Assembly (NCBI GenBank): GCA_964658305.1
Contig: OZ210885.1
Span: 10,230,001-10,294,000 of the forward strand
Reading direction: 5' to 3'
DNA length: 64,000 bases
From: Leptogorgia sarmentosa
Taxonomy: Eukaryota
Notes under the pieces: model-generated
Seen by the model: the letters and a program-made list of their open reading frames with translations, nothing else
What the model was told of the DNA's origin: nothing
Databases searched by the model: none
Program-made: the position numbers and the translations under genes
Part shown: piece after piece, positions 11,742 through 58,943 of the stretch
How the letters are laid out: every line of letters starts with the position of its first letter
Numbering within the stretch: the stretch's first letter is position 1

Positions 11742-12043
11742 TCAATGCGAGGATAACTTATTAAGACGAAGGAAGCAGACCCGACCTCCTTCCTGGCCAA
11801 CACAAACCATTCCATTTAAGCCACATGCGATGGCCAAAACATACCGGTCGAAATGAAATTCTTCAACACACTCTCCATTTGGTAGGTTCCACAGTTTCAG
11901 CGTCTTGTCACGTCTCGAGCACGACAAAAGTAATTCTCCTCCAGGCGATAATGCCAACGCTCTGATAAGTTCAACCATTTGAATTGGAAATCTATAGAGA
12001 ACCTTTCCAGTAATGAAGTCCGCAATCGCCAAAGAACCATGAC
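11742..12043 (-). CDS. Exon 16: terminal WD40 exon with stop
   Basis: LALSPGGELLLSCSRRDKTLKLWN...VGQEGGRVCFLRL, then stop. Confidence 0.88.
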
Positions 12044-15000
12044 CTAAAAGTGTGATATAAAATTTTTATATCTGTTAAGGCAATGTTACGCTAGGCAAAT
12101 TTTGCGATCAATTTTGGATAGATAATCATGTTTTATATATACATAGTGGCTGTTACGAACGAAAGATTTTTATGGCATTGTATACCCATTATTGGCGTAC
12201 GTTACCCAAGGCAATTTTTGGCATAATGTGGGACGTATTTGAATTTGGTTTCACAGCTATTTTATCTAACCGCAATGTTAGTTTTGCATCACTTGCAACC
12301 TGATCATGGATTCATGGCCATGTTATCTAACGCTTTGGTTATACCGAGTAATTATTTTGCCATTATTTGTGACGCAATTCTAACTTCATTGTGATTTATG
12401 TTGCAGGTAAGTTACCCAAAGGAATTTATCGCAACTGGCAATTCAATTTCGAGTAATGAGCCGCCTCTTGAACAGTCGCTTTTACGCTTTCAATTAACAA
12501 TTAGATTACGAGCTCGAGATTTCTATGAGGTGATAGTTGATGAGGGCGAAGCCCGAATCAACTATCATCTCGTAGAAATCGAGAGCGAGTAATCTAATTG
12601 TTTTAGTAGAATCAGAGATCAAACATTAAATATTGCAAAAAAAAATTTAAAAACGCGTCTCAGAAGGCATTTTCTTGAACGAAAATTCACATATTTCGCT
12701 ACTCGCTATCTATCGAGGAATAGATATCGAGTAGAGTAGCCAATCAAATTGCAGCATTTGCAATAGAATACGAGTATGATTCTACTAATAGAAATTAGTA
12801 ATAGGTGCGGGCGTAAATTTAGGGATGCGCGGGTAGTTTTGACACCCCAACTTTCGCGCAAGTGTCAAAACTGCCCGCTCATCTCAGAAATTGCGCCCGC
12901 ACCAATTCCTAATTTCTATTAAAAGCATAAAGCGCGTGTGGGGGAGGTAGGGTCCAGAGGTCACGTTATTTAAGTTGCTGTCTCAGAAACAGTCAGCTGC
13001 AACAGTCCCCAATAACCAAATATATTTTCCGAACATGAAGTATTTGTGGATTGCTTCATGCAAACACAAGCTCTATTTTATAATCACGAATAAATTCATT
13101 AACACAATTAATGTTTAACTTCTAAGCTAAAGCTACGACCATATCCCAAGAGACTTCCTATTTCGTGTACTAAACATACGAACAGGTGCAGCACATCTAG
13201 TGGCTATCCTTCAGGCAATGTACAAGAACACAACAGCTTCGACACTTCGTATGAAAAATAATTTTGATGCATGATGGTTGGTTGTAGACAGGGAGGGCAA
13301 CAATCCCTATGTTTATTCAACTACTATTTCGACTACCTATTCAAAGTCGCTGCAGGAGAGATAGATCGCACATTCACAGATGGATGAGGGATCGATTTTG
13401 AATAAAGCCAGGCGCATAAGACACGATTTTTGTCGACCGATGAAAATGTTTTCGTGTGTACGTTACATGAGGCGATTTTAGGGGCAGTTACGTAAGGTAA
13501 TTTCGAATTTAAAGCCATGTTATATAGCTTACACATGAAACATTTTTATCGCATGGCACACACACTATTCTAAATGTTGCAGAAGGGAATTTTTCGCACA
13601 ACGTGTGACGTAGTTTGGATTCGTAGCCTTCACACGAGTCAATTTTCACCATCACTTGTCACGTAATTTTGGATTCATAGCCATGTCATATAACGCGTCA
13701 GTTACACATAAAACGCGTCAGTTACATTTCGAAAGAGGTTTTAGTGCAGCAGGTATGTTACACAGCGGAAATTAGCAATTCAATAATCGGGCCCAGAGCG
13801 CGCGTTATAGCCCGCATTCTACATTTATTTTCAGATTTTTTCTCATAGCATGTTTATAAGGAAATATAGACACAGTAACCTGCGATTTATGTGCACAAAT
13901 TTCTCAGCAAGTTTCGTGTAAATGACACAGCTTTAAATCAGACGTTTCTTTCCAAGGGGCGGTGTAAACTGTCTGTCGTACTATCCATGCAGGGGCAGAG
14001 TTTCTGAGGGACGGGGTGCAGGGAAATTGTTTACCCCTTCAAAAAAATTGCCATCTCCTGCAGGGGCGGATCCAGTGGTTGCAAAGGTTGCACGCGCAAC
14101 CGCCAAGTTTGGAGGGAAAATTACTTTTTGAAACATTCTTCACTTCAGAATAAATGCTGTTTAATTATTTGGGAATGTTAATTCCGGAATGTTATAATTT
14201 ACATAAATACCGCGCGGTATTGTGTATATTAATGCGTTCACAAAAGGTTTCACTGATTTTCAGTATTCATTATTCGGAAATAATACATACATTACAATAT
14301 CATTTACATAAATGTCGTTGAATCTGTTTGTCATTAAATTTCGCGTCCGTAGTCTGTAGGGTAGTTTATATAACTCACTGACTCATAGGTTGTTCTTATA
14401 AACACATGGGATTGTGATGTCTCAGTTGAGTCTCTGACTTAAATCCCAGTTAGAACTGTTTGTCGTCATGTTATTTAAATAATGATACTAGGTAAACTGT
14501 TGTTTCAAACACAGACTGCACTATTGCTTAAGTATGTTGCTTAAATATTTGGTTCATTGACTGCGTTTCGTTATTTTCTCTCTAAAATATGGCGGAATTA
14601 ACGATATAATTAACATGTTTCTACGCTTTTTTGCGGCAAATTAAATCAAACACACAAATATATTTTATTGATGTTCGATCGACACCCTCACTCCAAAATT
14701 TGTTTTAATCAACTGTTTTAATTTTTTTTGTAACTTTTGATGATTTCATCACAGAACTCGCGGATGGCTTATATTATATTCGCATATTTTATGCTTCGAA
14801 AGGTTTTTAATTGCAATAATCTTGCGTACAATAGCTTGACGTCGCGTGCTTTGTTGCATGAATCTTAGGCGGGAATTTTGCTGGCAGCGCTAGAGGCAGA
14901 GCAAATTTCGTTCCTAGTTAATATGATGTTTCTTTGATAACGACCGAAGGAATTAAGCGAAGGAATAGGTGAGCTAGAAAAATCGTTGTCATACCGCGAA

Positions 15001-24000: not shown

Positions 24001-27000
24001 TCAAAGAAATTAACTTATAATTTTGATGGGGGAAAAACATATTCTTCGGAAAGATAAGCTTGAAATTCAAATTTCACGATACATAGACAGCAACCAATCA
24101 TTGTTGAAATCTTTTAGTTTGAACCAGTGGGTTTTTAATTCGTTTCATCATCTTGGATGTTTTGGCGATCTATAGCCACTCTGCTTTTTCAAGTTACAAT
24201 TCAATACTATAATGAATACATCGTCACTTAATTAATAAGCAGACAAAACGTATGGCGACTCCAGATTCGGACTATGCGAATTGAACTATTTTAGAACACT
24301 CTATGTCGACCAGCGACAATGTTCCCGAACTGCTTCCAGACAGAGCAAATTTCCCATTTGATGTGATGTCAATTGCTGTAACTATCGAGTCGTCAGGATG
24401 ACCTGCATGAAGGAAGTAAAATTTTTATTTGAAGTATTCATGTATGCGACGCTTCAGCGATGTAGCCTGCCAATCATTGAAAAATATCCTTCAGACGACA
24501 AGTAATCTTTATAGGTGCAGCAATAGAAATTTTATTCAAATCCAGGTAGGAAAATGCATCGCTGATATCGAAAACGCAAAAATAATTCATTCACTGTTGT
24601 GAATAAAAGACTAGTATACTAGAATAAAGGCCGTTTTCCATTACAGTCGTTTTGCCCGCGCGGGCGGAGCGAACGATTTTAACTTCGTCAAAAATCAGTC
24701 GCGCGGTCACGCCAAGAAAGTTGACCGTAGTTCAACTTCTAAGCGTCTCCGCGCGTGCAAAATCAGAGAGAGAACGCTCAGATTAGACACCTACAGCAAA
24801 AGTTGAAACATGTTCGCTCTGCCCGTGCGGGCAAAACGACTGCAATGGAGGGCGGCCTTAAATCACACCCATTTCACCCAAACTCAATCACTTTCACCGG
24901 ATAAATAGTACGTATACATTGCACGAACTTTCATTTGAATGGCCATGCATAATATTTCTTTCCCAATCATTGCAGTTATACTAATTTTGACACACTTTTA
25001 CCAATTGTAGCGATGGATTTTTGTTTCTTTACTTATTTTCAAATTTTTGAGATCGCTAGATTTCTCTATTATGTATACGTTTACTCTAGACTAAAAACTT
25101 GCAGTGGGCTGAGAACAGTCTTAGCTAAGGTCATGGAAAGACAGTTTAGTAGAAAGGAACAGAACTTCCGTGTCAATTGACAGCTAATCAGTAATCCTCC
25201 AAAACGTCAGCTGAGGTTTAAATCTTGAGGTATGTCCGCACAGCGCGACTAGTTAGGCTCGTTTTAGACATCTAATTATCGTCAAATTCAAACAATGAGG
25301 GAAGTAATCTCATGAATGAAACGGGCTTCAACTTTATTTGGAAATCCGCAGATAAAAGCGGCCGAAAATGTGTTGACATCCTTCATGTCGTGAAGGCACA
25401 TGGATGGGAAACTTACTATAGCAAAATACCGTTTAGAAAAAGATGAGATGAAAAATAGCAATTTGAAAAGGGAAGTTGAAACGAAAGATCTACGAAAGAA
25501 CGTAGTAGATCTTTATGTATACACGCTAACCCCGTTGACGGTGGCTGATTTCTACACGGTCGTGCGCTCGAAAATAATTTTACACGGTCGAATAATGAGT
25601 TATTTAGAAAACATAAAAATTTAAGGAAATATAGGTATCCAAATAGTAACATATTTTGAAAGTTTTAACTACTATAGTTTCAGCAGTTTTACAGCACTAC
25701 AGTGAGCAGCGATTATATTTCGAAAACAAATACGGGACTTGCTTTCTCTGATTTCTTTTGGACTAGAATATCAAAGGTGTACCCGTTGAGTATAAAACTA
25801 TTTTTCATGTTATTTGTGTGAGCGAAGAGAACTTGAAATGCTCAAAATTGATAATTTGTTATGAAACTTTGATACGAAAATGGATTGATGAGCGATTATG
25901 GAACAATCGTATGATCTAGTCATTGCTTATATATTCAGATTAATTCTAGCTGCTCTAATTTGCAGTTTTTGAAGTCGTTTTGATTGCGTTTCACTAAATA
26001 CCTTCCTTACTTCACTGTAATAGCCAGTAGTGAATGTACGGACAAACAATAACGTTATATATCAAAATATTTACATTTTGTTCAAGGAACGCTTCGAGAC
26101 GACGAATAGCAGAGATTTAAGCTGTTACCTTTTTTGGAAATAATTTCAGTATTATTTTTTCAACACATTTGCAGGGCAATTGTTACCCGGAGTGTTTTGC
26201 ATTCATTTTACATTCCGTCAAACCCATAACTGACGGGCGAATAGACCATTGATTTGCAACTGGATCCTGCATTCGAATAAGTAGGATAACCCAGAAAACA
26301 CAATATAAGCGGCAACGATAAGTAACGTAGCCAGCATAGTTAGTGATTATGCTCTAAATACGACATCTTTCATGTAAATTTCGTGGGCTTCAAGCATATA
26401 GAAGACAGGAAACAAAACTTGAATTGTCAGTGTTCGATCGATTCGACTATTATTGCGCATTGGATTGGATTGACTAATTTTTGAAATCTCCTAGTTTTGG
26501 AACGACCTAAATAACGGATACAGGTTTGTAGATACTCGTGACGAAACCGTTTTAATTGTATTCTCCATAATCCTTTAAACGAGCATAATTTTACATGTAT
26601 TCATAATCAGAACAGAAAATAGCCTGCAAAGCTAGCCAAGACTATTTCAGAGCTAACACGTAAATCGAATTCAATATTTGACTCATTTGCAAGTGAATGC
26701 AGTGGTTTTTCGGGACTAATATATTCTCATTTAAAACGGATATTTCACACATATAAATTATTGTGTGTATGAATATAGTAAAAAAATCCTGTAGCCGCAT
26801 CAAAGACTTAACAGTATTTAGAAGTTTCAAATATTCCTTGATTTACCCACCTGCATTATGGTCGATCGAACTGTTAGTTGAAAGTTTCCACTGGAGAAAC
26901 ACATTTTTCTGAAGCGAGTCAAACAAAAGATCTTTGCCGTCGGGTGATATTACAGGTGCGACCCTCCGACGTACAGTCGATACTTGCAAAGAGTCGAGAT

Positions 27001-30000
27001 TGATTTCACAAATATGCATATTAGGGTTGCATGTGTAAATCATGTTGCGATCGCATGCTATTTCCACTGTATAGGACGTGGGTAAAATGACGTCTTTCAA
27101 AGACGCATCAGGATTTTGCCAATCCCAGATGAACACATGGTTATCATTGCATCCAATTATAACTTGCAACCCATCAGAACTAAAGCGAACAATCTCAATC
27201 TCATCGCCATCGCGATAAATTCCATTGATCACACTGCCATTAGACAAATTCCACACCTTCAAAAATAAAAGGAAAAATTAATATTCTGTATGAAGCGCAA
27301 CAAAACTTGTGACTATAATGATTTACCAAAACTAATTGTGAATATAATAACTAACAAGCAGATAGGTTTCGTTACTTATATTATGCGTGCTACTCAAAGC
27401 GATTACTGGAAGTCAGTTTTTAAAGATGAAGATAGGGCATAAAAAGTTAGTTAATACGTTCAAGATTAGTTTTTACGTTTTATTTTCCAAAATATACGTA
27501 CACTGAGCAATAATATGACTGGACAAAGCTTCTGTAATGCATAAATAAGCGGCAAATGGCGGCCATATTCTGGTCTCCAAAAATGGCGTCTTTTTCCTTT
27601 TAAATTTGGCAGTGAATAACTAATGAGGTCACACCAAGATGGACGCCGTGTGATTCATGATAAAGCTTTTAAACGTTCTAGAAACCACTAGAAAATTTAT
27701 GACAAGCTCTGTGTATTGTTGAACTGCGCAAAAGAAATTTTCAGGGCCGTAGCTAGAGCGTTAATTGGGGGGGGGTGTATATTCATATATTCGTGCTATG
27801 CCCGACGGATTTCTTTTGTTTTTAAGTTAATTTCAAAAGAAATTAGTCGGGCAGAACATGAATATATGAATATACCCCCCCCCCCCCAATTAACGTTGTA
27901 GCGACGGCCCTGGACATTTTCTTTATAATCTGACCGTGCATGTTGTGATACCATTTATGGAAACTGCGATCGATTTCACCCATTTTAGTATTTCATCTCA
28001 TTATTTCATCAACTTCAAAATTATTACTGAATTGAAAGGGATGATAAATTCAGTACTTCGAGATCAGTGGGTTAAAAGGCTCGAACAGCACGTTTTGCCA
28101 TTTCATGAAAATAAGTCGCGCGAAAGTCCCAGAAAGCCATCTTAATGAACAGCATTTACAGTTGTACTGCTTTGTAATACGAGCGACGATTATTGAGATA
28201 TTTTACGCCCTTAATTTAAAAAGTTGTGTTGTTTCAACGCATAACTCGAATAGCAATGGATCGAGTTTATGGTGAATTGAAAAGGACATCGTCTTTTACC
28301 GAGTCCCTTCTTGCGCGAAGTAGATAACCAACTTTGAAACGAGTTCAGTAAGTTTAGTAACTTGTGTTCCTGAACTACGCAAATTCAACTGTTAGTTAGA
28401 TTAAATTAGTTGCTCTGAATATATTCCGTAAACGAGTGGTAAAAGATTGCTTTACCGCAATGTGAAAAATGTGAAATTGTGTGAAATTTTACCGTATCCT
28501 TTGCTAACCAACTAGGCAACCAACCAATACCAATAGAGGGTTAAGGTTAATGTCAAGTCGGTTCGACGTACCGTTCCTGCGTGCGACATGCATTTTACTA
28601 CCTATATAGGGACGACCGCAACTGTTGAGGTATTGCGCATATGACAATTCCAATTACGAAATCTGTTTACCTGTGTGTGTGTGGGGGGGGGGGAGGAGGG
28701 AGGGGTATATATAAAAATAAGGCGCTAAAAAACATGTTTTCGGGCATTTTCAGGGCGGATTTTGTTCAATTGGCATAATCATGCATGATCATCTGGAAAA
28801 AACCTAATATCAATTCACACTGTATAAAAAAAAGATATTTTCCTATGTTCAGAAAGACAACTAATTCACGACTTCATTGACTTCGGGTGAGTGGGGAGGG
28901 CCTCCAGAGATCTCATCTTACTGCGGGTCAGCTTTCTAAGATACAGTACCAACTGCGACGTTAGGAATTAGGCTTATGTGTGTGGAGTAAGAAATATAAT
29001 TTCCATCACTCTAACACTATTCTAGTAACATAATCTTGGTAATGATTTTGTTCAATTTTTGTCCATATTTTATGTATGCATTTAACAGTTTAACTGCATG
29101 TATACAACCGCGTGAATAAAGCTACTGGTGGAAAGTTTGACTGGTTTGCTTGAGTTCAGGAGTCTATTCCAATTTTCGTTATACAAATAATGAAACGACC
29201 ATGCAAATTGTGGAAAATTCAGAAAAGGAGCAGGATCAGGCAATTGATACAAAGTATGTTCAACTTCAAAATATTTAAGTTTTATTCGCCTCAGAGTTTT
29301 AACGGGTTGTTTTAGGAAATTCAACAAAGAGCAACCAACAGTCTTGCTCACTACCCTCACTACCACCCCCATCTAGTCATCGATATATATACAGGATTAT
29401 CTCGAGGGTCATATTAATTGGACTATATCAAATGTCAATTATACATATAGATACCGATCTTGAACAATATATATCTTGTGTCGCATCACAAATAGGTAAA
29501 CTCGTACATGAGACAACTTCAGCATTCAGTAAGTTGTACATGTTGCTGGGTCTTCCAGCAAGACAAAATAGGTAGTAAGTATTTTTCCCGAATAGATGAC
29601 AAATTTGGTGGGATTTTAGTAATGGAGATATTTTACGATCGGGTTAAATCTGGTTCCAGATTATCTAACTACAATACAAATAAAAGTTGTATTATAGTAC
29701 TCATTTGTGTTGGTAGTGGCTTTATTAACAGGCAGCAAAGAGTCTACTCACTACCTAAATAATTTAAACAGATTTTACGTTTCGAGCAAAGGGCCTTCGC
29801 TGGGATCGAATATTGTGTTACACTAATTCCCGACGAGGGCCCTTTCGCTGGAAACCTCAAATCCGTTTGTATCGCTTGTAGGTATTGAGTAGACCTTTAT
29901 TTGTTGTTGACGTTGCCATCTGCTACCTACACTGGTCACATACTCATACTTCAATTATTATCTATCATGGGTTATGTGTACGTTGACCTGAAACCGTCAT

Positions 30001-42000: not shown

Positions 42001-45000
42001 TGCGCCTTTGCATGCATGATATAATACTCGTGTTATTTACCTGTAATCGTTTTCGCTCTGTGATTTGCTGTTCGGCATGTGGTATAATTCCAGCTACATC
42101 AATCGTAGGAACAGCATCTTCTTTCAATCTCCTTTTAATATTTAGCGATTTTGCTAATTCTAGATTCATATCATAGCTACGGATCTTCGAAGTGGGCTCA
42201 AAAATACCAAGAGGTCGCCGTTGCGTGAAAACCCTGTCTATGTTTACAGACAAATTTCACGCACTTATTCCGTCTCTGAGCATCTGTTTCTTCATTAGGG
42301 AATAGATGCATAGAGATTCCTTCAGTTTTGCTATCATTGACGCAGCTAACTAAGTTAGGACCGCCAGCAATACAGCGTTTTCCTCCGCGAGTAGCTTTAA
42401 GTCTATTAGAAATATACGCCATGTTGAAAATGGGTTACACTTGTGACATCACACGGCATTAAGATGGTGGTCGAAAAGTTCGCACGGAAGTAGCCAAAAA
42501 TCGCAACTTTGAAAGGCCATAAAATCCGTTTGAAAAGAGCAATTTTAATTCTGTTTGCGGTGAACATATTCGGAGAGTACAAGTACTTTAAAATATGCCA
42601 ATAAAAAGGGGTCGAAAAATTCGTTGCAGTAACACTGCAACTGAAGCGACTCAATCGTAGTGAGAAGTTATTGATTAACATACATTGTTTGGGCACTTAT
42701 AATAATGTAGAATAAACAAAAAAATGTTAAGATTTTAATTTGGAAAATCGAGGGATGTGTCTTTTCCAACAAAAAATGTCTTACGCACGAAATTTAAACG
42801 CTTGAAAGTCATTTTGAGTTGAGAAAACTGAAACTTTGTCGAGTTGTGTATTGCTTTTGAAAGTTTCAAGAACACAGCTGGTTGAGTTTAAACCCTCAAA
42901 AACGTCGCACAAACTTACGTTTTTTAGAATAATTAGCTGTTCGCATGCTTAATTTAGGCTTGCATACCTGTCTCCTGGTCTAAGATGCTGATTGAACCAT
43001 TCCTTAAACCACAAATGGCCAGAGTACAGCCTGCAGCATTGGTCGTGGCTAATGAGGATATGGCCGTATCAAACGTCTTTCGCGATATCTCAGAGCCTCC
43101 GAGATCCAGACACGAAGATTCCGGTAAAAGATAGCAGGTCTTCGTGCATGTTTCACGGAGTTGCTCTGATATCTTCTGTATCCACGGATACTCTTGATAC
43201 GATAGCAGTCTACCTGGAAAATAAATATACACAACAGTGTTATGATATATCCTCGCAAAATCATAATATTAGGCCTACATATTATCGTTCTTGCCTTTGC
43301 AACTTATTTTTATCATGGATGACTTTTTGATAGAAACTAGGGATCCAAGGATAGTGCAAAGTTTCTAAAGCCTAGGTCGAACGTCGAACTTTTCATGCGC
43401 TGAACCTAATGCAAATGAGCTCAAACAAAGAACTTGGCTCATTAACATTAGGTTCGGCACATGAAAAGTTCGACGTTTGACCTAGGCCTTAGAGGACATT
43501 AAAATCATATTTTTCAAAAGAAAACTAAGGAAACATTGTTGACGTGATACGAGAAAATAATCACTATTTTATTGTCTGGAAGCAACTGCCATCGCAGCAG
43601 CGCGCGTGTAAAGCAAATCAGATGAATCTCTGACCTCTGACCTTTTTGAAATTATATACACATCGTACTGAACAAATGATCTTAAAAGAGTTAAATCACA
43701 AAGTGGCACGCTACTTCTGCGTCTTAATAAAATATCCAGTTTATTCACAGTATCAGCCAACGTTAAATTTACTTTTGTATGCCTATATGTGGTTTAGTTC
43801 ATTTAGTAACGAAAATTCTGTAAATCCCCGGTATTTTCGGGCAAACAAACAGCCCAAGCTTAGTGATGCCGTCGACCAGTGTTGTCGAGTCGGAGACAGC
43901 GAAAACAAACACGAAAGCTATAAATGCGAAAGCTCGCAAATATGTTGCCTATCATCAGCCAATTTAAAATATGTGACGAGTTCTACTGTGTTACACATTT
44001 TAGTTTGCCCGCAATGTCGGCCAACTAAATTTTTAATATAAATACGCACGGCGGCTGTTAACAGTACTAAATTGTCCATGACAAATACAAGCAGTGGCGT
44101 AACAACCGGGGGGGGGGCAGGGGGGGCGAGCCGCCCCCCCACAAAAAAAATTGTCGGGAAATTTGTTCAAATTCTGTCTGTCGGGAAAATGAATTTGAAA
44201 CCTGCTTTAAAAAAATTGTAGGACTGTGAGACGTTCCACAATCCACAATAAAGTAAATCGAAAAGAATGAGACGAAAATATAATTGCTGTAGGCAACAAA
44301 ATATCTGTTAACATATTGGGGCGGTTGGCCCTTGAACGACATGAATGAAAGATTTGAATCTTTCAGGGAGACAGTTCTTCCATTTTCGTGTTTACATCCC
44401 AAAAATATCGGCAGAGAAGAATCTTTGGAATGCTTTAATCAACTAGTATGACGAGCTTTTTCAGACTGAAACTGATATCGTGAGTGAGTTCAAAAGTTTT
44501 CAATCATTTTGGAAGGAGGTTGACAGTAACACAAAACTGCTATTAAAACTACGGTTGCAGTTCTTAAGTTTTTGGTGGCATCTGAACTTCAGAACGTTTT
44601 TCCACATATCTTTAAACTTTGTCAAATTTGTGTAATTATTCCCTCATCAAGTGCATCTGCGGAACGTTCATTTAGTCGCATGAAACTCATTAAGACCTAC
44701 CTACGGACAACGATGAAGTCAAGTCGACTTAGCGCCTTAGCTACTCTAAGCATTGAACGAGAAGCTGCCCTAAATCTACCATATGATGATATCATTGACA
44801 CTTTTGCAACATCGAAGAAAATGCATGCCAAATTTTAACTCTATTAGTTTATTGTTTAAGTGAGTGCGTTATTGATCAATGCATGCAATAACCATTATTT
44901 AATTTTGTGGTTAGAACTTCGTAGATAGGTATTGATATTTTTGTTGTATAAAATTGTATACTGCAATGGGCATTGAAAATACATGTTGGGAATTGTTCAA

Positions 45001-48000
45001 TAAAGTATGTATTAGTATTATCGGACGCATATAATATTGTCATATTAATAGACGCAATTAATTATATTATCAATTGAATCAATTGAATATGTTATGTATC
45101 GGCCATTTATAGTTTCGAGGACCGCTAATTTAAACCTTAAACCAGCCGCTGCAGGGTGTAATATTACAAATATTGCGGTGTGCTGAATACTTCAAGACAA
45201 AAATATGAAGTCGCTTAATTGAGAAAACGAGTTAGGTACAAGATGACCTTTGTCTTACCAGTTACCCTTGTAAACGCGTATAAAATTTGTTAAATTTGTC
45301 GGGAAAATTTTGGCTTTGCCCCCCCCACAGCACCCCCACTTGTTACGCCACTGAATACAAGTTTTCTACTAATTCAAATCTCTAGATTCATTGCTGATAT
45401 ATAAAGAACATTTTAACTGCTTTATCAACGCATTCAGACATGTTGGCCACATTATATTATCATCACAGTCAGTGAATTACTGATTCACGGCCCCACTCAT
45501 AGCGTCCGCCATATTGTGTAATTTCATTCCCCAGAAGTGCTGAGTTGCAATTTTTGCAAAAACTGAAATTCCGGAGGGGCGTCCGCCATTGTGTACTGTA
45601 TTTCTGCGCTTCTTTGATCACATTTCACTTCTAACAAACTTTCATATCAATGAGAACAACTGCAAATAATGATGAGCAACGATATATAACTGCAATCGAA
45701 TCATTTATGTTCAAACATTTCAAAGATATCAGTCAAATACCGAGTTGCGCATGTCAGGAGAATTTGGGACGCTCCCCTCGGAGTTTACACTATGAATGAC
45801 TGAATGACTACATGACTACATGACTGATGTGAATTTTCGCCACTCATCACAATACTGCAAAGTTTCTTTGAAACTTTGCACTAAAAAGTAAAACCTAGTC
45901 GCCCTTCCTAATTTACATTATATAATAAAATTACGATATTATTTCTTTGAAGAGTTTTAATTGGTTAAGAGCTGTGTATGAAATGGTTATATCCGTTCGC
46001 CAAAAACGTATATGACATTTGGACATAATTTTCTCGTATATTGATAACTAACATACGACATTATTTTCTAAAATCTCGTGTATAATGGGAAATGTCTATT
46101 ATATTATTGAATTCGGCTCTCGTAGGACATGCGGAATTATCAGCTCTTTGCGTGTGCAGATAACACAAATCTCTGCTTCAATAATTGAACATTAATAGTA
46201 GACGAATTTTCAAAAACTTTCATTTCTAAGCGTCGTCGCGATTCATTGATTTTCACATAATGGGGCCATATAGGAAAATTCAGTTTGGGAATCGAGTAGA
46301 TCTCGTGCGAATATCAGAGTTGGCATTTAAAAAATTCCTAATGTAAGACATACATAAATGGTCTCAGCCCGTTTATTTTCTTATAAACCAACGAGGAATC
46401 TCAAACCGTCGAGTCGTTCTTCTCTGCAATCCATAATACCCTTTGAAGTATATTTCTACCGCACGATTGTTTCACGGAACTCAGACCCCGTCCACACTAG
46501 TGCGTTTTCGTTTGAAACCGCTGACATCGCCTGCTGAGCATGCTCTTTAGAGAAAAAAATGTGTGCCCGCATGCTCATCGGCTAATATAAATGCGAGTTT
46601 GTTTTGATCAAAACAGCACAGCTAAAACGCGCGCATTATTGGCTAATGTTAAAGTGTTACTGCAACGAATTTTTCGACCTCGTTTTTTTTGCCTTAAATA
46701 AATATTCAGGTCGAAAGATGAAATTTGGTGTATAGATGACTTTTGTACGTTCAGTGGAAGTAACTAAATTTCGCCTCCAAACTTCGATACCGGATGCGAC
46801 AAAAACAGCCGCCATTTTGTCACCTTGTGACGTCACAAGTGTAACACGTTTAGCGAAGCTACTAGTAAATTGTATTGCGTTAGAGCTATACTCTGTGTTT
46901 CTCGCGCTTTTTTGGCCGGAAAAAAATATCTTTTGAAACAAAACTTGACCATAGGCATTTTAAGACAATATATTCTGCTCATGTCGAGTAACGAGTCTGG
47001 CGGAGACCCGCAATCGTGTGAAAGTTCAAGTGAAACTGCATGACCCGGTGTCGGATGGCTGGTTAGTTCATGTCACATCGCACTGCTTTGCGTACGACGA
47101 CGAACCTATAGCAGAACCTGGGGAAACGAATTGTGTTCCAGAAGATCCAGATGGATAGTTGCCAGCAACTGTTGAACAAAGAAGCGACGGTAGAATAACT
47201 CTGGATCAGTGATAAGTGAAGGTTCAAGACTGTTTAGACTTTAGCCTAATTAAAATAGCAGACGTAGGCTAAATTTGAATGTATATTTTATTGCTTTTAT
47301 TTAATATTCATCTGTAATGATATATTGTTAATTTTGGTATCAATATATTGATATCAGTATAATTATTGATTCCACATTGCCGTCTAAATATCTCAGAACA
47401 AGTGTGTATGTAAAAGAGCCCAATTTTATATAGGCCCTTTCTTTTGGGCTTCCTTGCCTTCTATTTATTAAATTTGTAAATACTTAAGCTGTGGCAGAAT
47501 AAATTGATTTGATTTGATAAGGAAATTAGTCACAATTCATAGCAAGTTAATATTTAGCGATTTTGCTAACTCTAGATTCATATCATAGCACGAATCTTCG
47601 AAGTGAAGGCACGAGGTCGCCGTAGCGTCAAAACCCGGGTTATGTTTACAGACAAATTTCACGCACTTATTCCGTCTCTGAGCATCTGTTTCTTCATTAA
47701 GGAATAGATGCATAGATACTCCTTCAGTTTTGCTATCATTGACGCAGCTAACTAAGTCAGGACCGCCAGCAACGCAGAGTTTTCCTCCGCGAGTAGCTTT
47801 ACGTCTATTAGAAATATACGCCATGTTGACAATGTGTTACACTTGTGACGTCACACGGCATTAATATGGTGGTCGAAAATGTCGCACGGAAGTAGCCAAA
47901 AATCGCAACTTTGAAAGGCCATAAAATCCGTTTGAAAAGAGCAATTTTAATTCTGTTTGCGGTAAACATATTCGGAGAGTAAATACTTTAAAATAAGCCA

Positions 48001-51000
48001 ATAAAAAAGGGGTCGAAAAATTCGTTGCAGTAACACTTTAAGCTTTTTATTCAACGTCTTTTGTCTTGTTTGTGCTCATTAAACAAACCAACTTTTCATG
48101 GGAATGTCTAGAAGGTTTCACGATCACGTTTTCTAGCATGTCTCAAATGTTTTATACATCATGACCTACTTTTGTAGATAAACGTTCACCTTTTATATTC
48201 GTATTAAAATCATTGTTACTTAGCTGTAAACTATCATCGGATGTTGCTTTTGAACACTTTTGACACATTCCCAAGGTCATCTGCACTTTGATTCATACAA
48301 ATAAGCGTATCATAAGCGTAATTGTTTCATATATAATTTTTTCATAATTTCAGATAAGTCATAAGTTAGCATAGTTTCTCGATTACATAAGGCTCGCTGG
48401 CAAGTGAAGCGAGTGGCGATAACACGCTGGTTATTTCCTCGTCTTTTACTTTTAAAATCAGCTCACTGAAGAGTCAAGAGGTTTTCAGAAATGTCGTAAG
48501 GTTTGCTCTTCATTTTCTTCGATCGTATACGAACAACTCCTTGTGTGTTGGCACGAACTCATATAACGTTGTGCGACAGACACATTGATACGTATCGATC
48601 AGCCAGCTAATTATTTTCAATACATATGCAGCGCGTTGTGCACGTGTTCTGGTTTTATAATGATCTTTGGCAACTTACTCAACTGAGTGTATTTCCATAT
48701 TTAGTGAGCCAATCATCTTGAATTACCCAAAGCATGCTTTACACGTGCTATACGAGGTACTGCGTCATGCGTTGACGCACGTAATGCGACGATTACATTT
48801 GCTGTGATCATGATTACAGCATTTACATTTTGTGGCCTTGTGGTAGTCAAACATTGCTAACCACTTCACTGATTGACGGCCCCACTCTAAGCGTTCGCCA
48901 TGTTGTGTAGAAATTTTAATGCCCCGAATGAATGCTATGACATTGTGTACTCTAACTTGTGGGCTTCTTAGGTCACATTAGTGACATTACTCACCTAGCT
49001 TACTTTTCTATTCATTAGAGTAACTGCAAACCATGATGATCAACGATTTATAGCTACAATTGCATAATATTCGTAAGGATATCAGTCAATTATGGAGTTT
49101 GTACATGGCAAGATTTTGGGAAGCACCACCATGCCCGCCCCCCCCCCCCCCTCCCCCGAGTTTGCACTATGAATGAATGACTGATGTGAATTTTCCCGAC
49201 TCATCAAAATAATGCAAAATTTCTTCGAAACTTTGCACTAAATAGTGAGGCAACTTAAACAAATCATAGAAGAATGAGATAAATTAAAGTCCAAGATTTT
49301 GGGAAGCACCCCCATGCCCTCCCCCCCACCCCCCTCCCGAGTTTACACTATGAATGAATGACTGATGTGAATTTTCCCCACTCATCAAAATAATGCAAAA
49401 TTTCTTCGAAACTTTGCACTAAATAGTGAGGCAACTTAAACAAATCATAGAAGAATGAGATAATTTAGAGTTCATTATTTGAATTACCTAGGAGTTGAGG
49501 ACAGATTGAATCTGGATTTTCGTTGATGACATCGGCAGAGAACATTAACGAGGATTTGAGAAGTTGGATTTCCTCCGATTCTGTGTCCACAAAACGAAAA
49601 TCTGATATTACAGAGAATACGCTGACGTGTTTCACTTTTTGTTTGAGCCAGTGTAGATCAAACAGCAACTGGAGTAGTTCACCATGTCGTCCCGAAGAAT
49701 AAATGTGATAGGGTAGGTACTTGAAATAATAGTCTCTTTGGCAGCAAGTTGAATTATCATTCCAATCACCATCCACGCACAGGGCACGAAGTGTCTTTAC
49801 GAACTTATCCTGAACATCATTTAGTGTACCCATGTCTTGAAGTTTTGTCTGGGCAAAATCCAAAAGCAAGTCATGGACACGATAGCTTTTCTTTCCGTGG
49901 ATTTCAGGCCCTGAAATTGGTCGAAATGTTAGGAAATTTGTACTAGAGACGGACAATTTTTGAAATCTCAAAATCGCCGTTGAGTAGTATAGAAAGAGTT
50001 GTGCTATCAGGTTTTCGTAAATACGAAATGGCTTAGCCACAATAAGAATAATTACTGGCTATAGCGAGCCAAGAATAATGCAATATCTGTAAAAAGACAC
50101 ATAGACTTAAGGTAGTCCTTAATCTAATTCCTAAAAAGCAAAGAATGTTTTTTAATTCACATGATTCGCCTTATTATTACAAAATATCAATAAAGAAATT
50201 ACAATAGACACTACATGAAAATAGAAGGCAGGGCTAACCCACAAACTCCAATAACGGGATCCTCCAATAAGTTATGTTCAGAACTAGTTGATACATTTAC
50301 TAATAACATGAACTGGCTTTGATTAATATTAAGCCCTGATCAAACGAGATGCAAGTCATCGCAAGTTTTAACTTCTGGGCCATGGAAACGAGGTAGCAAA
50401 TGATTTGAAAAATGTTGGATAAGCAGGCAATGGAGTCAAATTGTTTAAAAGACAAGAGTTATTTACGTATTATTCGCCTTAGATAACATTCTACCTTACG
50501 CCTTCTCCCTATATTTCTGTTAATGAAGTCTTAATGAGACCATTCATATCATTCAAAAGAATTCTGGACGGTTGTACTAGATGTCTATAGTTGGATGCAA
50601 GTATTACTCACATTCACTTCGTACTCTTCGTGTTTACATGCAAAATCGACTTGAAGCAATGAAAATACGCGGTTAAGACACGCACACGTTGTTCGGTTTG
50701 GATTTCCCGTCATTCCATGCAGGATGAAATCTTGATCCACTTTGCAACCTGTATTACTGGTTCACTGAATGTTGTAAATTTTCGTGACTAATGACAATAC
50801 TGCAAAGTGAACTTCGCACTAAATATAAACATTTTTCGGTGGATTCCCAGATCAAAACTGTTAATATAAAACTATATATACCTTTTAAGATCAGCGACTT
50901 TCTCTCGAGCACAGCAAGTATATCTTTGTGTTTCTGAGGTTTGCGCGAAGTGTTTCCATTCTGGTTCTGTATCGAACACCACAGCAGCTCGAGTACATCT

Positions 51001-54000
51001 GACGGTATATCTGTATCCTCTGGAAATATAGCCAAATGAAGAAACATCTCGCGTACACTTTCGTCTAGGTGTTGATAGCTCACATCAATGACTGCTAAGA
51101 GGTTATCATAAGGATAATCGACTTTGGGAAATAATATACGAATTCTCTCCAGGTCAGCATTTTTAAGATCATCTAAAACATCCTCCCAGTCTTGTTCCGC
51201 ACGAGTGTCCGTTAAATTTGAACCCACCAGTGACAGAGCCAGCGGTAAACCTCGACACTGCTCTAACAGATCTGCAATAATTCGCCGTAAGTTTGGCGTT
51301 AACTGTTCGTCTGGACTTATCCCAGCGCTCTGATACAACAGCCCTCGGGATTTATCTTGTGGCATAATAACAAGTTCGTACTTGGTAATTCCCGAACCGC
51401 AGAGTACAGTAGCATCTCTAGTTGTTATTAATAATTGGCATTTGCCAGATAAGCAATTGAATACAGCAGCGTCGTCCACCTTCCAAACATCATCAACAAC
51501 AACCAAACAATCTTTATCCATCTAAAAATGAGTTGAAAACTAGCTCAAAAACCGTACCTGTTAACTGCATTCAAAGGTCGGAAAATTTACAACTCTTAGG
51601 GCCTGTTTACATGGAGGCGAGTTACCCGGTTGACCGAGTTACTCGCCTCGCCGGGAAAAAACAAGCGTTCTGTTTATATGGAACCGAGTTACTCGGCATT
51701 CATCTGTTCAACACACTGTAGTTACATGAAGTACCCTAACCTGGTGGTACATAGGATGTAATACGCATGCGTTGTTCGCAAATGTTCCTCCCGGCAAGCC
51801 GAGTTTCCCGGTCAAAGCGTTTACATGGTAAAATATTCATCTCGCCAGGGCGAGATCCCGCCTCTTTCCACCGGGAACTCGCCAAGGCGAGTTACCCGCT
51901 TGCGCCATGTAAACACTTCACCGGGAAACCTATAATTTTGTATTGAAGGCGAGTTACCCGGCAAAGCGAGTAACTCGGTCAACCGGGTAACTCGCCTCCA
52001 TGTAAACAGGCCCTACTGGCCAAGCCCTTCAAAGGCTCGCTTGCAATTTTTTAGTGGCATTTTCTGGCCTTTCTGATATATGGGGCACATGTTCATAGGT
52101 GGATTTATGACGAGTGTTCTGATTTTATTATTTCTGAATTCCGCACCTGGTTTAGTCTTTCACCTCAATCAAAGCGGAAATAATAAAAATCGCACTAGAA
52201 ATCGCTGCAAAAATTGCAAGTGTAAAAGAGTCCCAACTGCCAATGCATGAGATGAATGAGGTTTTTTAACGAACTGAGAAAGTACAGGTAATATTTATCA
52301 TTTATAGACCCGAAGGCAATATGAAGCAAATATTTCGACCATCAGTCAAGCCACATCAGTTGTATGCAAGTATATATTGTTTTCGGTTCACAAGAATGTA
52401 CGAGTTAACAATTGTGCTTTGTTTACAAATACTTACACGAGCTGGCTGTACAACGCACGAGAAATTTTCAATACTGAACGAGGCGAAGCCGAGTTAAAAT
52501 GTTAAATTTATTTTGAAAATTAAAGACAAGTAATAAAGCTTACAGCCTGGACAAGTGGTCGTGTGAAAGAAAAGACTTGGAAGAATTGCCACTATTCTAT
52601 CTTTAACGTCCATCTAACATCAGACTTCTACACTTAACGTCGCTTTAATTTACGTTTACCAACGCTGTACCGGATATATTTTTCTGTATTCGTGCAACTT
52701 GGCTATTCGAGCTACATCCCATTAAAAATCGTCCCTATCTTGAAAATAGCCCTATTACATTTTCCCACAAACATCAAATATAGCACAGCATACATACCGT
52801 GTATTTTCTTAACCAAGATTGCGCTGCAACAATATCACTGAACGACACATCTCCACCAAGGACTCTGACGAGGGTGTTAATCAGTTTCAAGCGATCAGGT
52901 GTTTGACCAATGTCAAGCCAGACAACTTGACGAGATTTTGAGACTTCCCAGGCAACAGCTTGTGCTAACACCGTCTTACCGAGGCCTCCCATTCCACGGA
53001 TACCAACGTCGCCACCATGACGTCCAACAACACCCACTTTATTTCCCTGCTTGAGTAACTCCAATATCTCGGTTACTTCTGATGGCCTTTCCACCATGTG
53101 AGCAGGTAGATTGCGTAATCCATACGGAACTAGAATATCGATTAAAAAATATAGATGATAATTTTGAAATCACTCTGCTGCACGCTTCAAATAATTGTGC
53201 ATACCAGAATGCATATTTGTATAATTTCAACTTTGAACATTAATTTCGTTCAATATTTTACGTCGCCCTGGCATGAAAATCTCTTGCTACAGTTTGCAGT
53301 GTATTGTTACTGAAGTGAGTCTAAACTTTATTTAAACTTTACCAAGAAAAGCAATTTGTAGTGTGCTTTACGATTATTGATGAGAAGTTTCTACGTTGTG
53401 GCTGTTCCTGTTTGGTCGTTTATGCTTGCGCGCGCAGAAGGTGCTAATTGGTACAGTCTTTCCTCACCACCTGTACTGCAGGGTGAGAGAACTTGGAGTA
53501 CGTTATGATTTTGAAGTGCTGTCCACTGAGTGCAGTGGTGATATAAAGATATGTAATATCAAACTACCATTCCTAATCATCGAGGTCACTCGTGCATACT
53601 ATATCGAAATTGCATTCGAAACCATGCCAATATGTACCTATACAAATAAGAATTAGACATTCTAGGGTATGATTCGGCTTCTGGACAGCCGACGTTTCAT
53701 TGTATATATCGCGCAGCGTCCATTTCAGTTGAAGCTTTCAAATCATGCTATAGAATAAAGCTATAAAAATCATTTACAGCATGGATTTTTAGAAAGTAGT
53801 ACAAACGAACAGTGACATCTCGGCAATCAGAGCCTCTAAAGTAACAGAAGTGGCAACCAGCAAGCTGGCCAGTCTCTTCATACAAGTCACATAATTTTGC
53901 CGACAGAACACTTTTCCTAACGCCGGGACATCCATCGCGAAGCCATTTTTCAAAGTCGTCAAAGAACCATTGTCTGGTCCCTTCTTGAAATTTTCGAATA

Positions 54001-57000
54001 AGCTAGTCAATCTTTCCATTAAATACAAATTTAGTTAATTTTTCAGAAGATTTTTCTACCACAGTTCGCAACTTGACAACTTGGCTTTCAACATTGACTG
54101 CTGAATCTCCTATTAATGAAGCATTTTAGGACATAAATCAAAAGAAGAAGCATTTAACTACTATCAGCAACATTTAAGCATTTTGTCGCAATTGAGCGGC
54201 GTCAACTTTTCACGAGCGTTTTTTATTTGGTTGTGCCCTACGCAGTTAACCCGCCCAACATTAAAATTCATTTTTAGTGATGATGAGTGCGACAGCGCGT
54301 ACTGCACTGCCAATGCTTTCGGATTCCCACTAAATCTGGGAAGTGTTAGAAGACATATTGCATTCCTGTTGCCGTTTACTCTAACGAGATATTTTCCTAC
54401 AAGAAATTCTTAGAAAAAGAACGTTGAAGTCCGGGAAGGTTCGTGGGGGACAAATTTTGAAAATTGAATGGCTGGCTGACAGTCTGTAAATTTTTTCTGC
54501 ATAATATATTTTGCATAAATAGTTTCCATCTTTCCTAGTTAATTGAAACACTACCTTTTTTCTCTGCAAAATCTGAATGCTCCGTCCTCGGCTTTTTCTG
54601 ACGAGATTCGATTTCATCTGTTTTCTCCGCCAGACGTTTAAGCTCCATTGAATGATGTTCAAGTTTCTCAGCTGCAGACCTTTCAACCTCTTTAATTTTG
54701 CGAAGCAGTGTGGATTGTATGTTATCGAGTTTCTCCATCACTGGATTTATCTGAATAGATAAAATTGATTTAGTAAATTCAATTTACGGGCTGAAACAAA
54801 TTTGAAATCACTCTCAACTTCACAAAGCGGGTTAAGGTGTGTGATGTAATAATAGTTATAATCTGACGTTATTAGTATAGGTAATTGTATGGTTTCGAGT
54901 GCAATTTGGAAAAAACATTCACGAGCGAGTTTTTCTCGTTTTGTTCGGCCGCTAATATACGAAGTTGTTTCGCTTGTCCACCGAGCACTTGCTTGAACGA
55001 AGAGAAATCTCTGTCTCGTATTATAAAAAGGTTGTCATCATCGACTGCTGTTAATATCACTTTTAAGCTGTCAGCTTCATATTCATCGCCGTTTCTTTTT
55101 TTAATTCGCAGTTTTCGTTCAGCATAAAAACAATCGAGCAAAATATCTAATCTAACACCTCTTGCGGAATATTTTGTATCTCGCGCTGTATTTCCTTTTC
55201 AATGCACCATTTTCTCCGCAAAATCAACTAAAAGACTAGATATCTTTGGTGGTATTTTCATTTTTCGAACTATTTTTAAGCCCCTCTATCATTTGTCTGT
55301 TCCTAAAAGAATCTACCCAAAGAGGCAGCCATTTTTTCATCCTCGAATAATTTCATATTTTGTTATTGTTCGCCAGAAATGGCTTAATCTGATTGGCTAG
55401 CTTTGTAATCTCAGCCAATCAGAAGGCATAAACATCTGAAGAAATTTGCACTGAATTTCTTTTTTTTTGCACTGAATTTCCTTTTTGCCACTGTATTTCC
55501 TTAATATTGCACTGCTCTTAGCAATTCAGAATCGTGAAATTTTTTCATGTATATTATTAGATTAGAGATTAAGATGAGTATGTAAATTAATGAGACAATA
55601 TATATGAGGCGAGGACAGAGTTCGTTGTGCTGTGGACGACCAGACAAGTAAAGAGGGCAGGGTCACAAGGATTCGAGAAGATTTAGTTGGAATTGAAAGC
55701 GTGTATCGAGGTGACTGAAAACAATCTTAGGCGAGATGAGTAAAGTAAAATTGTTAGTTCTTGAATGAAAAAAAAGGCGACAAAGCGTAACTAGCGTGGG
55801 TGAACTAAGCTCCAACACTGAAAAGAATCAACTACGGTCTGATATCCTGAAGTTTAAAGACAGTCGTTCTATACCTGGAGTGTTTGGCAAACTGAAAATA
55901 AAACTCTCAGTCGATAAACGATAGAGTTATATCCACCTCTCGCCCAGCAACGCCGAGAAACCGAAGACAGTCGCTTATACAGTTAATTCCCAAAATTTAA
56001 TTCCCAAAATTCCTAAATAGAATTACTGAAGGAAAACTTGAAGGCAATTACCGAGCAAGTCCAGAATCCTCGGGACAGAAACTACGCATTGTGGCTAGCT
56101 GAAGACAGATGACGGAAACTCTGTGGACTTGTTTTGTTTGAACTGCGACGATCTTTTACGGGCTACCCACATGTGAGTTGTGCGTACCTATTTTTTCCTC
56201 TCTTATAAATTGGCCCTTTTTTTCTCAAAATTTTCGAATTGCTATCGAATAATTTTTACCTCACTGTGAGGACGAAATATTTCAATGTTTGGTCGACACA
56301 GATGTAAAGTCGAATACGAGCTAAAATTTTTGTGACGACATTATACATAAGGTCTATTGAAATTTAATATGCAAGTTTCCTAGTTTCTAAACTTTTCAGA
56401 AATTTGTAGTTCAACGTTTGAACCTCAATAGCAATTTTGCAAGCAAAATAATTGTTATCTATCAAAATTTAGGTTTATCTCTTGCCTATGAGAATGGCTA
56501 AATTGTTTTGCTTAATGGATGTCCCAGCCCCTTGGGGTAGTTTTTTCCCCCTAAAACAGTATTTTATTTATCAGTAATTGATATGTAGTGTGTTTTATTT
56601 ATCAGTACACGCTTCGTTCTAAGTATTGTATTGCAAACGTGTCCCCAAAAAGTATACACATGTTTGACTTGGAACGTTTAACGGGTAAAGCAAAACTCAT
56701 AAAAACAGCATTATCGAAAAAAAGCACAGATTGCGTTCCCACGCTGAAAATTTGCACTCGCTCGCATTTGAAACATGTCTTATATTAATTTGAACAGCGT
56801 CGTCCTACTTATTCAACGACTGTTAAATGAAACATCAAAAGTTCCTCAAACCTTTGTGGCGTCCAAATCGTAGTTTTTGATACAACGGCAAAGTTCAGCT
56901 ACACTTTCTGCAATTAGTTTTGCGTGACGACCATCAACAAGAATGTCTGGAAATAATGAAGAAAATTTATCTTCAGTATCGCAAACACTATAAATATACC

Positions 57001-58943: not shown

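Follow-up and report, generated by a model that had tools for sequence, protein, structure and literature searches.

A predicted HEPN ribonuclease head on an Apaf-1-type NB-ARC-WD40 receptor gene of Leptogorgia sarmentosa

Apaf-1-like animal proteins have been described as scaffolds that recruit caspases via adaptor heads. A locus of Leptogorgia sarmentosa raises the question of whether an apoptosome-type switch of this kind may carry an enzyme as its head. The window analyzed here is the whole stretch of 64,000 nucleotides (contig OZ210885.1, positions 10,230,001 to 10,294,000; G+C content 37.5%), and it contains a candidate gene of 16 exons at 58943-11742, obtained by homologue-guided modeling. 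With a probability of roughly 0.6, this gene encodes an Apaf-1-type STAND receptor with a predicted HEPN ribonuclease head, which would work as a self-contained sensor-nuclease. The exons, all on the minus strand, are as follows.

58943-58358 (-), exon 1: HEPN-like domain, aa 1-195; D114 codon at 58604, RNPWAH at 58511-58494
56946-56852 (-), exon 2: helical linker, aa 196-227; joined to exon 1 in L001 and L003
54750-54555 (-), exon 3: helical/coiled-coil linker, aa 228-292; followed by a phase-1 intron
53129-52798 (-), exon 4: start of NB-ARC; Walker A at 52995-52972
51521-50882 (-), exon 5: Walker B, sensor TTRD, GLPL, start of the winged helix
49910-49488 (-), exon 6: VHD motif, Apaf-1 helical domain (APAF1_C, E 2.9e-11)
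43213-42968 (-), exon 7: end of the helical domain, first propeller blade
38782-38564 (-), exon 8: WD40 repeats
37014-36805 (-), exon 9: WD40 repeats
35997-35760 (-), exon 10: WD40 repeats
34423-34191 (-), exon 11: WD40 repeats
32140-32040 (-), exon 12: WD40 repeats
27256-26851 (-), exon 13: WD40 repeats
23847-23243 (-), exon 14: WD40 repeats
19770-19518 (-), exon 15: WD40 repeats
12043-11742 (-), exon 16: WD40 repeats through the stop codon

All 15 introns are GT-AG with consistent phases, and the spliced frame of 5085 nt encodes 1694 aa with the terminal stop as its only stop codon. The protein is composed, in order, of a HEPN-like head, a helical linker, NB-ARC, the Apaf-1 helical domain and a WD40 region. 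RNPWAH occupies residues 145-150, and Walker A (GMGGLGKT, 338), Walker B (410), the TTRD sensor, GLPL (494) and VHD (as RVHD, 627) are all intact. Pfam analysis of the exon ORFs recognized NB-ARC (E 7e-18 and 3e-6), APAF1_C, and WD40 in six downstream exon ORFs. The stop-free, phase-consistent frame with its nucleotide-binding motifs, as well as the Apaf-1 helical domain and long WD40 region, had been proposed in a first-pass annotation from the sequence alone; the former was confirmed by the spliced translation and motif positions, and the latter by these Pfam matches. The nearest named relatives are from the octocorals Dendronephthya, Paramuricea and Xenia, with 53-63% identity on exon 5. 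Since residues 1-1694 align with the relative P0001 (1709 aa, from a contig of 5604 nt) at 56.8% identity over 1732 columns, that is, over the full length, the gene model is not a product of chance. A further 5' exon is possible because an acceptor-like AG (58951) lies 7 nt 5' of the ATG and relatives carry 6-10 more N-terminal residues than the model.

The joining of the head to NB-ARC was analyzed in relatives. The locus L001 (4084 nt) encodes P0009, and the window matches on it abut at exon boundaries. Its junction 3/4 has no intron: the spliced string reached 72, against 33 and 44 for the unspliced strings. The spliced string beat both unspliced strings at 8 of the 11 junctions examined. 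Among the remaining junctions, 8/9 was tied, 2/3 was too diverged, and at 11/12 the contig enters GT at the donor position of the window, which is a sign of partly spliced RNA. Splicing is shown because L001 lacks introns and yet keeps the intron-11 boundary. Thus, the splicing of exons 1-3 to exon 4, on which the first-pass annotation depended, is present in a transcript-like contig of a close relative. The L002 and L003 sequences continue into GT where exons 1 and 2 have their donors, and therefore these two intron positions are common to relatives. None of the window introns matched any of four relative loci. Judged from these sequences, the fusion of head and NB-ARC is real in relatives, which are 70-80% identical in DNA over most exons and are not this copy. 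Short contigs by themselves were rejected as proof of splicing; relatives like P0014 seem to be read from unbroken genomic frames. P0014-P0018 are more distant NB-ARC-WD40 relatives, apparently in single unbroken frames from the exon 4 junction, and one of them lies on a 1.3-Mb contig; they suggest that this head boundary also exists in a form with few introns. The L002 frame starts from about position 61 with MGQAFS, presumably a myristoylation-like start, and no such start is seen in exon 1 of the window.

The identity of the head was approached through its family. The head of the window itself gave zero Pfam matches at E up to 5, the head-family profile gave no match against PDB sequences at E up to 10, and Foldseek returned nothing for the head at E 0.001. 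Conservation was counted in 265 domain copies from 252 proteins, seeds included, and 230 copies span the motif. R145, N146, H150 and D114 are conserved across the family: Rx4H is kept in 217 of the 230 copies, as presumed in the first-pass annotation, and R[NDH]xxxH in 212, with R or H lost in 13; at the D114 column, 237 of 250 copies have Asp. In relatives, HEPN_Swt1 matches run across the Rx4H motif in P0147 (E 1.9e-7, summed over two copies), P0349 (3.8e-5) and P0348 (8.9e-5), and one relative exceeds the curated HEPN cut-off, by summing two copies. DUF4559, which we take to be CXorf38, matches the relative P0310 (E 1.9e-5). At a recognition value of 2068, below the guide of 2300, HEPN_DZIP3 or DUF4559 is annotated on 11% of members among the Atlas neighbors at 0.97. 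At that same value below the guide, the Atlas cluster at 0.93 has HEPN_DZIP3 and DUF4559 on 38% and 37% of its members, and the Atlas clusters are partly annotated with HEPN_Swt1 as well.

The DZIP3-type HEPN (PF18738) was not found on the shared domain among the matches listed (relatives scanned: 9, 31, 7 and 50 proteins). HEPN_DZIP3 matches in P0255 and P0364 were rejected as family evidence, as they fall outside the shared domain. The first-pass annotation proposed a HEPN effector and mentioned DZIP3-type HEPN domains; the HEPN proposal is supported by the links in relatives, of which the best at the sequence level are to Swt1-like HEPN and DUF4559 and not to DZIP3.

The AlphaFold model of the head (pLDDT 79, 18 sequences) is all-helical, and RNPWAH ends the helix 133-149. 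It is a helical bundle compatible with HEPN, and unrelated four-helix bundles fit equally in the fold search. In the wide search, HEPN entries scored Z 5.7-7.1, and unrelated four-helix bundles tied or led (best Z 8.6, acyl-CoA dehydrogenase). The Swt1 C-terminal domain aligned over 119 of 136 residues (Z 6.8, rmsd 3.5), with non-HEPN bundles scoring alike. AF0298 (6.7), sacsin (6.3) and Csm6 (5.7) were also recovered, against up to 8.6 for unrelated bundles, as were 5yep (Z 7.1) and Roquin (Z 6.4), which we take to be HEPN structures. The dN/dS of the head is 0.28 against L001 (95% 0.19-0.43), 0.28 against L002 and 0.37 against L003, and the head is under purifying selection. The head very likely belongs to the HEPN superfamily. 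It is most likely a Swt1/CXorf38-like HEPN, because Rx4H is kept, dN/dS is 0.28, and relatives match HEPN profiles. It is also predicted, with good likelihood, to be catalytically active as an RNase.

The head belongs to a large invertebrate family with 566 representatives at E 0.001, and this family is mostly invisible to Pfam. From corals to mussels and lancelets, >90% of copies retain the motif residues. The head is chiefly N-terminal, with 113 of 133 copies beginning within 80 residues, and in this position it was found on nSTAND3-ankyrin, NB-ARC-TPR-MYND, NACHT-LRR, AIG1 GTPase, kinase and death-domain proteins; it is present on Roc-COR proteins as well. Partners as varied as nSTAND3, NACHT, NB-ARC, AIG1 GTPase and Roc-COR are as would be expected for an immune effector. 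Fusions to IRE1/RNase L-like kinase-nuclease, AIG1 GTPases and Roc-COR, the last with the head C-terminal, were observed in P0331 (Xenia), P0184 (Mytilus) and P0282. Since Pfam mostly misses the family, invertebrate immune catalogs probably undercount it.

The switch and the sensor are those of an Apaf-1-like protein. Among PDB sequences, exon 5 is matched best by human Apaf-1 (E 9e-17), and cyanobacterial NB-ARC proteins outscore human Apaf-1 (up to 128 versus 64.5 bits). Against L001, dN/dS is 0.27 for NB-ARC and higher, 0.48, for the compared WD40 part, and it is <0.5 in every region compared. The WD region of about 900 aa has a net charge of -39, a mere hint toward a cytochrome c-type ligand. 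The matching 934 aa of the relative P0002 were modeled as all-beta with 82 listed strands in about 21 blades (pLDDT 84, pTM 0.51), and Apaf-1 entries match about 720-790 columns of this model. The WD40 part of human Apaf-1 consists of two propellers, whose acidic inner face receives cytochrome c, and DNA binding by human Apaf-1 has been reported (PMC11747288, available part). In contrast to these two, the WD40 region of the window protein probably forms three propellers, going by the P0002 model.

The relatives sharing this body differ in their heads. Tandem DED was found in P0005, P0142/P0002 and P0008, tandem DD in P0010, and one DED in the P0004 model. In all of them the head switches at [KR][VA]P[YFH]GL, which is the exon 3/4 junction of the window gene. 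The NB-ARC region is 62-64% identical to that of three DED-headed relatives. An N-terminal CARD is absent: exon 1 has no Pfam match, and transcripts of relatives open with the HEPN-like head. The first-pass description of the protein as a CARD-less Apaf-1-like receptor is thus right in that no CARD was found, but close relatives have DED or DD, not CARD, at the place of the HEPN head. No leftover death-fold (DED/DD) exon was found within the 64-kb window (best E 0.28).

NB-ARC trees were built from 38 and from 17 rows, with no vertebrate sequence among the rows; the 38-row tree omits four isoforms and all rows with <280 aligned residues. The window sequence groups with P0001, P0009, P0006 and P0003 (100/99) in a clade nested among DED and DD forms, and the DED-bearing P0008 falls outside this set of forms. 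Of the five clade members, P0003 and P0006 lack an annotated head domain, which may be a gap in their gene models. The union of the four DED forms in one clade was rejected (p-AU 6e-5), the grouping having been named after the first tree was viewed. A proposal that P0002, P0004 and P0005 cannot form one clade of DED forms, likewise named after that viewing, was unsupported (p-AU 0.29). Because the HEPN clade sits among DED/DD forms, a death-fold head is the likelier ancestral state by these trees.

In the head tree (33 rows), the domain of the window falls in a clade of 21 rows (100/99) with an octocoral HEPN-STAND-TPR-MYND-beta-helix family, and its linker is homologous to the linker of that family. 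On account of this clade and linker, exons 1-3, the HEPN and linker cassette, were likely donated by the HEPN-STAND-TPR-MYND family. At the phase-1 intron ahead of NB-ARC, the cassette would have taken the place of tandem death-fold exons. The head and NB-ARC trees conflict with each other: the head groups with P0009 (95/89), its nearest fused counterpart at 71% identity, whereas NB-ARC groups with P0001 (100/99), and the grouping of the window with P0009 was rejected by an AU test on the NB-ARC tree alone (p-AU 4e-4). This conflict hints at repeated exchange across intron 3. A wider account, held tentatively and at a little under even odds, is that an octocoral apoptosome scaffold was turned from a caspase recruiter into a nuclease via a mobile HEPN cassette, as an animal counterpart of bacterial Avs proteins whose RNase would be switched on by ring assembly, and that heads are still exchanged among paralogues.

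Two decoy exons lie on the minus strand within the gene.

53820-54109 (-), intron 3: broken NACHT (NPHP3_N-type) exon remnant with a phase-1 acceptor, an in-frame stop and a damaged Walker A; outside the frame
24218-24435 (-), intron 13: partial duplicate of the intron 13/exon 14 boundary, 89% identical and decayed, with an intact acceptor (24403) and an in-frame stop (24274)

Both are upstream of the true acceptors, match them in phase, and lead to stops. The NACHT remnant (NPHP3_N, E 1.5e-4 and 1.1e-3) is in phase with exon 3 and is 28-30% identical to Xenia proteins that bear the same head on an NPHP3_N NACHT (P0317 and P0310). Its inclusion by splicing would yield a product of head and linker without a sensor, ending after about 35 more residues. 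By a crude acceptor score built on the gene's own 15 sites, with the true sites left out in turn and the decoys not, the remnant reaches the 84th percentile versus the 73rd for exon 4, and the duplicate, inflated by its likeness to exon 14, the 99.8th versus the 93.5th for exon 14. The decoy exons may be inert, regulatory, or spoiling this copy.

These decoys bear on two other explanations. The architecture might work in relatives while this copy is mostly mis-spliced or decaying through capture of the NACHT remnant or the exon-14 duplicate; the decoy acceptors, upstream, phase-matched and scoring as well as or above the true ones, are what such capture would use. The 16 exons are nevertheless without stops or frameshifts, dN/dS is below 0.5 throughout, and it is the decoys that have decayed, which makes this quite unlikely. 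Alternatively, exons 1-3 might have begun a HEPN-NACHT gene of their own, now dead, that continued with the remnant at 54109 as its next exon and happens to lie upstream of an unrelated NB-ARC-WD40 gene. The phase of the remnant and the NACHT-borne heads of P0317 and P0310 fit this idea, which is highly improbable all the same: in L001 and P0001 this head with its linker leads straight into the NB-ARC start seen here, the closest head is the fused one of P0009, and no death-fold head with which the NB-ARC exons could otherwise begin was found in the window.

Other explanations accept the fusion and differ in what the head does. A non-cutting head, serving as an RNA-binding or protein-recruiting module that signals through a partner, would resemble the adaptor heads on sister proteins; it is unlikely, as the inactive HEPN domains described in one available paper lack the motif, whereas >90% of copies here retain R, N, H and the Asp upstream of them. 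The protein might also regulate a DED- or DD-headed paralogue in mixed rings, dampening caspase recruitment or adding RNase activity. Mixed assembly is plausible given the NB-ARC identity to DED-headed relatives; the role itself appears improbable. The preferred reading is still that of a receptor with its own nuclease.

Apaf-1 oligomerises upon ligand binding. From Apaf-1 and HEPN biology, the WD40 propellers of the window protein would keep NB-ARC closed and the heads apart at rest, and the linker helices would possibly cover the active site. Ligand binding on the acidic propellers could then lead to nucleotide exchange and ring assembly, where linkers of about 100 residues would pair the heads and two RNxxxH motifs would form one active site. 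The outcome would be cleavage of host or viral RNA and, with no caspase involved, cell arrest or death. HEPN catalysis requires a dimer of R-phi-xxx-H motifs with one composite active site, and a CXorf38 model proposes an Asp upstream and an occluding bundle of helices downstream (bioRxiv 10.64898/2026.05.28.728550, available part). D114 and exons 2-3 resemble the Asp and helices of this model by position only. No report of RNase activity of an animal HEPN-STAND protein was found in the available parts of the literature searched.

The protein is like Apaf-1 and its paralogues in the intact NB-ARC motifs, the Apaf-1 helical domain and the WD40 tail. Invertebrate Apaf-1 paralogues carry CARD, DD, DED or TIR heads on NB-ARC-WD40, and head swapping has been described (Zmasek 2007, PMC2246300). 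The heads given in the available part of that paper are all interaction domains, unlike the predicted enzyme head of the window. HEPN-NACHT-WD40 and HEPN-NB-ARC-TPR proteins have been cataloged in corals (PMC10236652, Additional files 16 and 17). In the available tables of that work, which cover five stony corals and only Pfam-visible HEPNs, 175 of 180 WD40 rows are NACHT, the five NB-ARC rows are all death-fold headed, and none of the seven APAF rows contains HEPN. HEPN-NACHT proteins are expanded in anthozoans, with 83 in Dendronephthya (PMC8260672, available part). The DZIP3-like HEPN-STAND proteins of corals share the plan of HEPN head, STAND NTPase and repeat sensor, and RNA-level defense has already been proposed for them; the window protein differs in its scaffold and in its HEPN subfamily, which Pfam misses.

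HEPN-NACHT proteins were proposed as defensive RNases earlier (Anantharaman 2013, PMC3710099), and the same survey describes CXorf38/Swt1-like HEPN domains with Rx4H and their invertebrate fusions to NACHT, ankyrin and death domains; an NB-ARC-WD40 fusion of this type is absent from its available part. The window head resembles this family in Rx4H, and the Asp upstream and the helices downstream are reminiscent of the CXorf38 model, while its insert differs in lacking conserved zinc-ribbon cysteine pairs. HEPN is also listed among invertebrate immune fusions (PMC8195603, available part). Bacterial Apaf-1 homologues carry caspase-like protease heads (PMC13581612, available part). Like these and bacterial Avs, the window protein unites a sensor, a STAND switch and an enzymatic effector on one chain; unlike them, it is encoded by a spliced animal gene, and its head is a predicted RNase and not a protease or DNase.

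A literature search covering few subscription papers brought up no HEPN on an NB-ARC-Apaf-1-WD40 scaffold. This agrees with the first-pass annotation, to which no characterized case was known, but the novelty is smaller than that annotation implied because HEPN-NACHT-WD40 and HEPN-NB-ARC-TPR proteins are already cataloged in corals. The gene is real, intact and conserved, and the combination of its known parts is apparently undescribed. With an enzyme head, an apoptosome-type switch would bring about RNA-level cell arrest or death free of caspases, by a design known until now from bacteria. The good understanding of the Apaf-1 switch also makes the gene a tractable test of the long-proposed idea of oligomerization-activated RNases in HEPN-STAND receptors of corals and mollusks.

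Other elements of the window are listed below.

2165-2509 (-): short frame with a weak OTU-like protease match (E 0.004)
4354-7094, downstream of the gene: eight tRNA genes (Trp, Glu, Gly, Ser, Cys, Asn x2, Pro)
7537-8796 (-): open frame of 419 codons with no Pfam match, presumably a retrotransposon gag-like protein with a Cys/His knuckle
44530-44838 (+), intron 6: remnant of a hAT transposase dimerization domain (E 5e-10)
40771-42636 (intron 7) and 46649-48037 (intron 6): two copies of a repeat, 88-92% identical in pieces; the frames 41978-42256 and 47537-47836 within them are presumably THAP-like
9192-9356, 12496-12602, 12786-12921, 27731-27924, 33451-33592 and 43364-43493: self-complementary, MITE-like elements of 100-200 nt
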